DNA from: an uncultured Chloroflexia bacterium
GTDB taxonomy: Bacteria; Chloroflexota; Anaerolineae; Anaerolineales; UBA11858
Direction: 5' to 3'
NCBI GenBank assembly: GCA_963824175.1
Contig: CAWGOD010000016.1
Span: 43,103 to 107,102, forward strand
Length of the DNA stretch: 64,000 nt
Below are positions 10,960 to 24,961 of this stretch, piece after piece. How positions within the stretch are numbered: position 1 is the stretch's first letter; each line of letters starts with the position of its first letter. The notes under the pieces were generated by a model. The model saw nothing but the letters and a program-made list of their open reading frames with translations, did not search any database and was not told the origin of the DNA. Position numbers and translations under genes: made by a program.

Positions 10960-11046
10960 GGAGGGGTCGCATAGTCCGGCCTAGTGCGCGCGCTTGGAGA
11001 GCGCGTATTCCTCACGGAATCGTGGGTTCGAATCCCACCCCCTCCG
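10960..11046 (+). tRNA. tRNA-Ser (anticodon GGA), type II with long variable arm, no encoded CCA
   Basis: Manual cloverleaf: acceptor GGAGGGG/CCCCTCC; anticodon stem CGCGC/GCGCG with loop TTGGAGA; variable arm ATTCC-TCAC-GGAAT; T arm GTGGG-TTCGAAT-CCCAC; discriminator G. Confidence 0.9.
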
Positions 11047-11555: not shown

Positions 11556-11669
11556 ACGAGCTTCGGGTGGGTCCGGCGCGGCAGAGCCCTTTGAACCGTG
11601 TCAGATCCGAAAGGAAGCAGCACTAAGGAGGATCCTCTGGGTGCCGCCGGTATGCCTACCCGAGGCTTT
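11556..11669 (+). ncRNA. ffs: Signal recognition particle RNA (small bacterial 4.5S type)
   Basis: The domain IV core GUGUCAGAUCCGAAAGGAAGCAGCACUAAGG matches the conserved GGUCAGGUCCGGAAGGAAGCAGCCAAGG of E. coli 4.5S RNA, including a GNRA loop. The 5' end AGCUUCGGGUGGG pairs with the 3' end CCUACCCGAGGCU. The exact ends are uncertain by a few nt. Confidence 0.85.
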
Positions 11670-23665: not shown

Positions 23666-23697
23666 CAAAAAACAGGCAGAGTGTTACTCTGCCTGTA
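23666..23697 (-). terminator. Rho-independent terminator downstream of rpmE
   Basis: On the minus strand: ACAGGCAGAG-TAACA-CTCTGCCTGT followed by TTTTTT. Confidence 0.8.
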
Positions 23698-23724: not shown

Positions 23725-24198
23725 TTAAATTGAGATATCCTCAGCTGCTTCAGGGATTTCAAATCCTTGAGAGCGTAAGGCTTTCTTCAGATCGATCAGG
23801 GATTTTCGTCCAAAACCTTTGATATCCAGCAGAGGCTGATCACCACCGTCCAGTAGAGTCAGCAGATCCTGAATGGTCACAATTTTGGCATCCACAAGGG
23901 CGTTCGTAACACGAGCACCCAATTCCAGCATCTCCACTGAAACATCAGCGACTGCTGTTTTTGTATCCCTTTCCGATTTCGCTTTTTCGAATTCCTCATG
24001 GGATTTCAATTTCTTATAGAATCGGTCAACCTGTCCCTCGGTATCAACAATGCGCTGTTCGCCGGTGAAAAATGGATGACAGGCAGAGCACACATCGGTA
24101 CGAATTGATTCTTGAGTTGATCCCGTTTTCCAGGTGTTGCCGCAAGCGCAAAGAACCGTCGCTTCGGGGTAATATGTTGGGTGAATTTCTGCTTTCAT
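23725..24198 (-). CDS. rpmE: Ribosomal protein L31 (Zn-ribbon type) fused to a C-terminal RNA polymerase alpha-CTD-like helix-hairpin-helix domain
   Basis: Residues 1-65 are canonical L31 ([10 protein letters not shown]...CACGN...[10 protein letters not shown]...VDRFYKK). Residues about 88-150, [23 protein letters not shown]...[21 protein letters not shown], follow the alpha-CTD pattern [12 protein letters not shown]...IGDL...NFGKKSLxEIKxxL. Confidence 0.85.
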
Positions 24199-24211
24199 TT
24201 AATATATCCTT

Positions 24212-24469
24212 TTATTCTGCGGGATACACATGTACGCGTTTTTTGCCACCACGGAAGTCCTGGAAGGTGACAACACCGTCTGCTGTTGCAAATAAGGTGT
24301 CATCTCCACCGCGACCTACGTTTTCTCCAGGATGGATCCTGGTGCCGCGCTGACGCACTAGGATATTTCCGGAGCGTACTTGTTCGCCGCCAAATTTCTT
24401 AACGCCCAATCTCTTGGAATTACTGTCTCGTCCGTTGCGGGTAGAACCGCCACCTGTTTTATGCGCCAT
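24212..24469 (-). CDS. rpmA: Ribosomal protein L27
   Basis: [24 protein letters not shown]...; 85 aa. Confidence 0.95.
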
Positions 24470-24800
24470 CTTTTTCTCCTGATTTGGTCACGATCTTGTC
24501 TACCTGAAGCAGTGTATATTGTTGACGATGACCTTGTCTCTTCCGGTAGTGCACTCTGGGTTTGTATTTAAAGACCAGTAACTTGGGTCCTTTAATTTGG
24601 TCGATGACAGTCGTTTCTACCTTGGCTCCCTTGATCTGCGGAGTACCAATGGTAACTTTCTTTTTGCCATCAGAGATGAATAACACCTCTTTCATAACAA
24701 ATTTCTTTCCGGTTTCAATGGGAAGTTTATCAACCTGGAGGACCTCTCCGGGCACAGCTTTATACTGTTTCCCACCACTTACGACAATTGCATACTTCAT
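24459..24800 (-). CDS. rplU: Ribosomal protein L21
   Basis: [26 protein letters not shown].... The ATG at 24800 is preceded by GGAGGAG; the track ORF starts 5 codons earlier at a TTG inside the RBS. Confidence 0.9.
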
Positions 24801-24933
24801 AAACTTCTCCTCCAATCTTCACTTCACCGTTCTCTCTGTGTTCAATGCCAGTGCCACAGCGGAGCGGGGAAGTTGGGGGTCTTAATCCATGCCAAAAGGC
24901 TGCAGAAGGACCTATTCCTTCAGTGCCGTGCCA

Positions 24934-24961
24934 TTATACCAGACGGTGAGAAAGTGTCAAT
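24934..24961 (-). promoter_or_regulatory. Sigma-70-type promoter for rplU-rpmA-rpmE (TTGACA-16-TATAAT)
   Basis: The reverse complement of 24956-24961 is TTGACA and of 24934-24939 is TATAAT. This implies a 5' UTR of about 125 nt. Confidence 0.65.

Follow-up and report, generated by a model that had tools for sequence, protein, structure and literature searches.

An alpha-CTD-like domain fused to ribosomal protein bL31 in Anaerolineae: conservation, other carriers and a possible link to transcription

The rpmE gene of the window (the whole stretch of 64,000 nucleotides that was analysed, from an uncultured bacterium of the order Anaerolineales) encodes a bL31 protein whose C-terminal part resembles the C-terminal domain of the RNA polymerase alpha subunit (alpha-CTD). 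The locus raises the question of whether this is a genuine and conserved ribosomal protein, where else in the lineage such a domain is carried, and what a polymerase-type domain might do on the ribosome.

Gene, operon and domain architecture

The rpmE gene (23725..24198, minus strand, TAA stop included) encodes bL31 fused to an alpha-CTD-like domain, 157 aa in all, and Pfam placed both parts (PF01197 and PF03118) above the cut-off. The open reading frame list and the translation gave a frame unbroken from the ATG start to the TAA stop, identical in sequence to the intact 157-aa frame reported in the initial annotation. The rplU-rpmA-rpmE arrangement described there was also recovered, with the L27 and L21 frames lying upstream of rpmE. 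The rpmA gene (bL27, 85 aa; 24212..24469, minus strand, stop included) matched PF01016 with 122.9 bits. The rplU gene (bL21, 118 aa from TTG as listed; 24459..24815, minus strand, stop included) has the plain form and matched PF00829 with 112 bits at residues 8-108, though translation may begin only at the ATG of residue 6. A PF03118 search of the same assembly gave no alpha-CTD match on this bL21. Downstream of rpmE lie a thymidine kinase gene and a phosphoribosyltransferase gene.

The 13 nt that separate the stop of rpmA from the start of rpmE contain, as read from the sequence, a ribosome-binding site AAGGA (24207..24211, minus strand). Some 120 nt upstream of the rplU frame, a promoter-like TTGACA-16-TATAAT with TG upstream (24933..24960, minus strand) agreed with the consensus at 12/12 positions as a pattern match only. 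An intrinsic-terminator-like hairpin with a T-run (23672..23696, minus strand; 11-pair stem with 6 G-C pairs, tail TTTTTGTTAA) was located 29 nt 3' of the rpmE stop. By these pattern matches only, rplU-rpmA-rpmE looks like a self-contained unit with its own promoter-like site and terminator. An Rfam scan of the operon and the stretch ahead of rplU gave no known leader or RNA family. Over the whole window, the same scan gave a bacterial small SRP RNA (66.8 bits, 11565-11664, plus strand) and a tRNA gene (10960-11046, plus strand).

The L31 domain (residues 1-65; 24004..24198, minus strand) matched PF01197 Ribosomal_L31 at residues 1-64 with 97.9 bits (cut-off 27, E 3.8e-28). It also scored above the cut-offs of the NCBIfam L31 equivalogs NF000612 (96.7 vs 70) and TIGR00105 (87.7 vs 38.35), and the type-B L31 model NF002462 gave 50.4 against a cut-off of 86. 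The four cysteines of a CxC ... CxxC pattern, which are zinc ligands in L31, were found at C17, C19, C37 and C40, and in the alignment of 33 fusions none of them was retained in fewer than 90%. The family matches and the four cysteines bear out the earlier description of residues 1-65 as a zinc-type L31. Fusions of one other family (f9; L055, L056 and L057 in G250, G516 and G322) lack all four cysteines and are of the non-zinc type, so the fusion is not bound to the zinc form of L31.

The alpha-CTD-like helix-hairpin-helix domain (residues 88-146, Pfam envelope 76-142; 23761..23937, minus strand) gave 44.2 bits with PF03118 RNA_pol_A_CTD on residues 76-142 (cut-off 23.8, E 1.5e-11, model positions 3-66 of 67). 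On another contig the same genome has a complete rpoA, whose CTD is 41% identical to the window domain over 64 residues without a gap. The C-terminal 92 residues had 18 sequence matches in the PDB, all 18 to RNA polymerase alpha chains, with no similarity to NusA AR1 or AR2 among them. A profile of the 33 fusions aligned solved L31 chains at positions 1-65 and solved alpha-CTD chains at 71-150 (3gfk_B, E 1.1e-10). Among the best 60 of 104 PDB matches, L31 chains reached no further than profile position ~86 and no solved chain spanned both parts. Judged by these sequence comparisons, the assignment as L31 plus an alpha-CTD-like helix-hairpin-helix domain holds. The Pfam scan suggested with the initial annotation (Ribosomal_L31 and RNA_pol_A_CTD, both above cut-off), the PDB matches and the identity to the RpoA CTD all agree with it.

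The E. coli alpha-CTD string quoted for comparison in the initial annotation equals E. coli K-12 rpoA as fetched. The match to it had been called almost position for position; the alignment stands, but it needs a 3-residue insertion in the window protein (residues 117-119, between E. coli T285 and E286). This insertion is common to all Anaerolineae domain types, RpoA CTDs included, and is absent from the alpha-CTD of B. subtilis as well as from that of E. coli, which points to an origin within the lineage.

For comparison of single residues, 87 Anaerolineae domains (23 RpoA CTDs, 36 L31-borne, 20 NusA-borne and 8 other copies) were aligned with E. coli RpoA. RpoA CTDs are known DNA binders, and their DNA-binding '265 determinant' consists of R265, N268, G296, K298 and S299 in E. 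coli. Each of the five was kept in 23/23 RpoA CTDs of the class, and the window protein has all five equivalents (R96, N99, G130, K132 and S133). Among the 36 L31-borne copies as a group, the R265 and G296 equivalents were present in 32 and 34, and the N268, K298 and S299 equivalents in 8, 20 and 19, respectively. The loosened conservation at N268 and K298 speaks against UP-element recognition of the classical kind. The position of N294 is Asn in all 23 RpoA CTDs and Gly in 35/36 L31-borne, 19/20 NusA-borne and 6/8 other copies. Mean net charge was rejected as a discriminator between hypotheses, being -1.1 for the L31-borne domain and -2.1 for RpoA CTDs.

Between the two domains lies the charged linker that had been noted at the outset (residues 66-87; 23938..24003, minus strand), and the protein ends in a short, variable acidic tail (residues 147-157; 23728..23760, minus strand). 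Over the 33 fusion proteins, mean pairwise identity reached 65.3% in the L31 domain and 43.6% in the CTD, against 25.3% in the linker and 19.8% in the tail, and the higher value of the CTD than of the weakly conserved linker indicates that the CTD is under constraint. Linker length was conserved: from residue 66 to the conserved Leu91, 25 aa were counted in 23/33 fusions and 23-26 aa in 27/33; four others had 31 aa, and a single one, that of G512, had 39 aa.

Copy number and distribution of the fusion

The fusion gene is the sole L31 of its genome and is conserved. The home assembly (73.5% complete) gave one L31 match, with no second, short L31 paralogue of the kind that the initial annotation had proposed looking for, and two alpha-CTD matches above the cut-off, namely RpoA on the other contig and the rpmE fusion. 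Within the same order, exactly one L31 match was found in 58/61 genomes, in open frames of 155-282 aa, and the three genomes with no L31 match are 85-88% complete.

In a phylum sample of 401 genomes, six of them unpublished, a full-length match was obtained in 34/34 same-order genomes and in 3/11 other genomes of the class. No fusion was seen in other classes of the phylum among the matches listed, which there cover the L31 part alone; 471 further matches were weaker than E 5.8e-24, and the weakest fusion seen had E 6.9e-31. In a class sample of 151 genomes, 22 of the 147 genomes with an L31 match carried the fusion. Outside the order it was present in 18 of 143 such genomes, from eight families, and presence within a family was nearly all-or-none. 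In the protein database, 7965 relatives were found among 8000 scored candidates. Carriers among the best 80 loci of named species-representative genomes included the cultured Ornatilinea apprima P3M-1 and metagenome-assembled genomes labelled Pelolinea, Bellilinea and Flexilinea.

The same data bear on the explanation that the fusion arose in assembly or sequencing, by an error that ran rpmE into another gene, a concern that had been raised with the initial annotation. All of the best 80 loci, from independent species-representative genomes, covered residues 1-146 or more in the same architecture, all 34 order genomes of the phylum sample gave the full-length match, and the best 120 database clusters all had PF01197 plus PF03118. 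One internal stop each had been flagged by the phylum search in the full-length matches of G354 and G157; the flag examined was spurious, since a broken form in G354 was rejected when an intact 155-aa fusion was read there. Nothing was found in favour of an artefact, and conservation across independent assemblies has already refuted this explanation, which retains a negligible probability. An apparent L31 plus separate CTD gene in G092 and G320, where the match ran to residues 113-119 across a stop, was also rejected, as a plain L31 of 80-86 aa followed by unrelated sequence.

Other carriers of the module in Anaerolineae

The class was searched with the domain alone and with PF03118 (76 genomes), and the loci were then read. 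A bL21 with a C-terminal alpha-CTD-like domain (PF00829 plus PF03118) was found in G404 (L010:820-1422 (+)) and G483 (L011:1661-2257 (-)), in both cases within the rplU-rpmA-rpmE operon and with a plain L31, and PF00829 plus PF03118 occurred in 26 of the best 120 database matches of the G404 protein. A bS16 with such a domain was read in G520 (L013:1021-1617 (+), between ffh and rimM), G483 (L028), G424 (L075) and G290 (L077), and by coordinates it is also present in G404, G443, G403 and G386. Both PF00886 and PF03118 were present in all 120 best database relatives of the bS16 fusion, which makes it a common architecture in metagenomes of Anaerolineae. A candidate bS16 fusion in G322 (alignment 1-193, 36% identity) was rejected as a low-complexity tail in which the domain model finds no CTD. 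The bS16 of the home genome (contig 5, 135615-136028 (-)) lies in a 281-aa frame and aligns to residue 134 of the bS16 fusion query; as judged from its sequence it probably has a long tail, and no PF03118 domain was found in that frame.

Copies were also read at the C-terminus of NusA, where one or two alpha-CTD-like domains precede a long acidic tail and, at the very end, a basic motif. Seventeen such loci were read (L012:2583-4622 (+) in G512; L004:25-1875 (-) in the home genome; L018-L027; L033-L037). Pfam confirmed two alpha-CTD copies in the NusA of G512, and 50/53 PDB matches of its C-terminus were RpoA and none NusA. On sequence comparison, the Anaerolineae NusA modules are alpha-CTD paralogues and not AR domains. 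The NusA of the home genome (616 aa, with an acidic tail of ~110 residues) has a degenerate PF03118 copy of 13.4 bits, below the cut-off, with no BLASTP similarity to the L31 module. A NusA-size PF03118 match was present in 10/17 genomes with a ribosome-borne module vs 16/59 without; these are counts in related genomes, on which no statistical claim is made, with NusA identified mostly by frame size and with at least one L31-borne domain (G452) missed by Pfam. No NusA-size PF03118 match was obtained in the fusion-bearing G006, G421, G458 and G463.

In the polymerase itself, an alpha-CTD-like insert was found in beta-prime ~100 residues after the NADFDGDQM active-site motif in G513 (L031) and G514 (L032), at residues ~724-795 of frames of 1477 and 1585 aa, respectively. 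Frames of beta-prime size (1270-1560 aa) with a PF03118 match, known from their size alone, occurred in 12/76 class genomes, nine of them above the cut-off. Frames of 431-449 aa with a CTD in G425 and G533 were rejected as a new carrier and are RpoA with an acidic tail.

When 1.84 billion representatives were searched with the isolated domain, 357 matched at E <=0.001, and many such architectures were among them. The module is also attached to carriers of unrelated kinds, including membrane and cytoskeletal proteins: HTH_3 proteins with a CTD (L099, L100), DUF4013 membrane proteins with a CTD (L105, L106, L101), proteins with two or three CTDs and a sigma-70 region-4-like part (L103, L104, L102), and bactofilins with a CTD (P0151, P0154). 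Tandem-copy proteins range from 6 to 11 copies, and P0123 has 11 CTD repeats in 1031 aa.

A case of apparent movement between carriers was found in G512, where nusA and the rpmE fusion lie 2.4 kb apart. The L31-borne module there is identical to NusA CTD1 at 47/58 aa (81%) and 147/174 nt, with 29/30 aa and 80/90 nt in the final 30 codons, and it is only 47% identical to the window module. Plain L31 is present in two of three sampled genomes of the family. The identity to NusA, the 39-aa linker and the plain L31 of family-mates favour, on sequence grounds, an independent and recent acquisition from nusA, or gene conversion. In a rapid maximum-likelihood tree (87 domains, 68 columns), 31/36 L31-borne copies formed one clade (SH-aLRT 99), the G512 copy was nested within those of NusA, and the main clade left out four copies, of families f104 and f125. 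AU tests rejected neither a single clade of all 36 (p 0.196), nor the main clade with G512 (p 0.29), nor a clade of all but G512 (p 0.418). Multiple origins of the L31 fusion therefore rest on identity, linker length and family distribution, and not on the tree.

Possible role on the ribosome and comparison with known systems

In PMC9966373, the C-terminus of bL31 is placed on the 30S head at S13, S19, S14 and helix 41, and its N-domain at the central protuberance. The module would thus be suspended from the 30S head, where canonical bL31 has its C-terminal end; the initial annotation had set its attachment near the central protuberance, which is instead the site of the L31 N-domain. In E. coli coupled complexes, as described in bioRxiv 10.1101/2020.03.01.972380, RNA polymerase and NusG dock on the 30S head via S3 and S10, and NusA docks on S2 and S5. 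E. coli NusA-AR2 binds the alpha-CTD (PMC4642336).

The sole and constitutive bL31 carries an RNA polymerase alpha-CTD paralogue on a spacer of conserved length, ~25 residues. From this and the published context we infer a position on the ribosome, a partner and an effect on coupling as follows. The spacer would be an arm, flexible or helical, that reaches out from the 30S head. The module on it may serve as a docking adaptor and share its partner with the paralogues carried by NusA and, in some lineages, by beta-prime. The partner might be one such module itself, in the manner of E. coli NusA-AR2 with alpha-CTD, or a nucleic-acid backbone held by the transcription complex, and in both cases a ribosome engaged in translation would stay near the polymerase that is transcribing. 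This adaptor role is put forward tentatively, at somewhat below an even chance. The paralogous modules on NusA, in beta-prime, on bL21 and on bS16 lend support to the tether, and to the relation to transcription-translation coupling, that the initial annotation had suggested. The adaptor role is weakened by the degenerate NusA module of the home genome, which has no BLASTP similarity to the L31 module, by the four genomes named above that carry the fusion with no NusA-size PF03118 match, and by a domain tree that leaves the source of the L31 module unsettled. The ribosomal proteins bL21 and bS16 are located elsewhere on the ribosome than bL31, so no single geometry is implied.

A general nucleic-acid binder would fit as well with the presence of the module on DUF4013 membrane proteins and bactofilin, which are unrelated to gene expression. 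The helix-hairpin-helix would then bind a DNA or RNA backbone with no sequence specificity and independently of RNA polymerase or NusA, holding mRNA near the 30S head or keeping ribosomes on the nucleoid. The best-kept positions of the L31-borne copies, the R265 (32/36) and hairpin glycine G296 (34/36) equivalents, are consistent with such a clamp, and carriers as different as DUF4013 proteins, HTH_3 proteins, bactofilin and proteins of 6-11 tandem copies are easiest explained by a ubiquitous ligand such as nucleic acid. However, L31-borne copies have kept the N268, K298 and S299 equivalents less strictly (8, 20 and 19 of 36), and the mean net charge of the domain (-1.1) speaks against nucleic-acid binding only indecisively, as DNA-binding RpoA CTDs average -2.1. 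We regard this explanation as rather unlikely, though a serious one. A purely structural decoration of the ribosome appears more doubtful still. Under it, the domain would be docked permanently on the 30S head (on rRNA or S13/S14/S19), where it would support bridge B1b or modulate head swivel in a way unrelated to transcription. The 25-aa linker of 23/33 fusions suggests a fixed geometry, the fusion is the sole L31 and universal in the order, and lineage-specific L31 extensions are seen in solved ribosomes (chains of <=97 aa, with longer precursors). Against this, near-identical modules on bL21, bS16, NusA and beta-prime in related genomes seem to move between carriers, which a site-specific rRNA contact would not easily do.

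Returning to the docking adaptor, a stronger form can be stated, in which Anaerolineae would have a hard-wired expressome: alpha-CTD-like modules on polymerase, NusA and ribosome would bind each other or a shared ligand and couple the first ribosome to the polymerase beyond the NusG-S10 bridge. We consider this form improbable. If it were true, the polymerase modules would be those of alpha and, in some lineages, of beta-prime, the ribosome modules would be those of bL31, bL21 or bS16 by lineage, and their repeated independent grafting onto ribosomal proteins would reflect convergent selection for a ribosome-polymerase link.

Full-text literature searches, with subscription journals and supplements outside their reach, returned no paper on an alpha-CTD fusion of L31, L21 or S16, and none of these three proteins is mentioned in the accessible part of PMC7203096. 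Database pipelines already label both domains of the L31 fusion. As far as we can see, the range of alpha-CTD carriers within one class is first assembled here. It puts a polymerase-type domain in ribosomal proteins of a large, abundant and poorly studied class, with copies also on NusA and in beta-prime. If the modules pair or share a ligand, they would connect the two machines in a new way that is simple genetically, and would offer a natural system in which to ask to what extent coupling relies on tethering. Should the module be a nucleic-acid clamp only, a DNA- or RNA-binding arm on the 30S head would still be an unusual ribosome variant. These ideas are testable: the fusion occurs in cultured bacteria (e.g. 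Ornatilinea apprima P3M-1), and the small size of the domain suits it to NMR and pull-downs.

Compared with known systems, the window protein is like canonical zinc-type bL31 (RpmE, type A; ~66-72 aa in solved ribosomes) in its full-length family match, four cysteines, ribosomal-protein operon and single copy, and unlike it in having ~90 extra residues, made up of the 25-aa spacer and the alpha-CTD-like domain. The domain is like the RpoA alpha-CTD in its score above the Pfam cut-off, its gap-free 41% identity to RpoA of the same genome, the 3-residue loop insertion of Anaerolineae and its R265 and G296 equivalents. It differs in being located outside RpoA, with L31 as N-terminal partner, in the Gly at the N294 position and in an N268 equivalent kept in only 8/36 copies. 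For the putative pairing of such modules, the AR2 domain of E. coli NusA with the alpha-CTD (PMC4642336) offers a precedent of a small helical NusA domain that pairs with an alpha-CTD. Like E. coli NusA, the Anaerolineae protein ends in small helix-hairpin-helix domains, one or two, here followed by an acidic tail; unlike AR2, these domains are alpha-CTD paralogues themselves.
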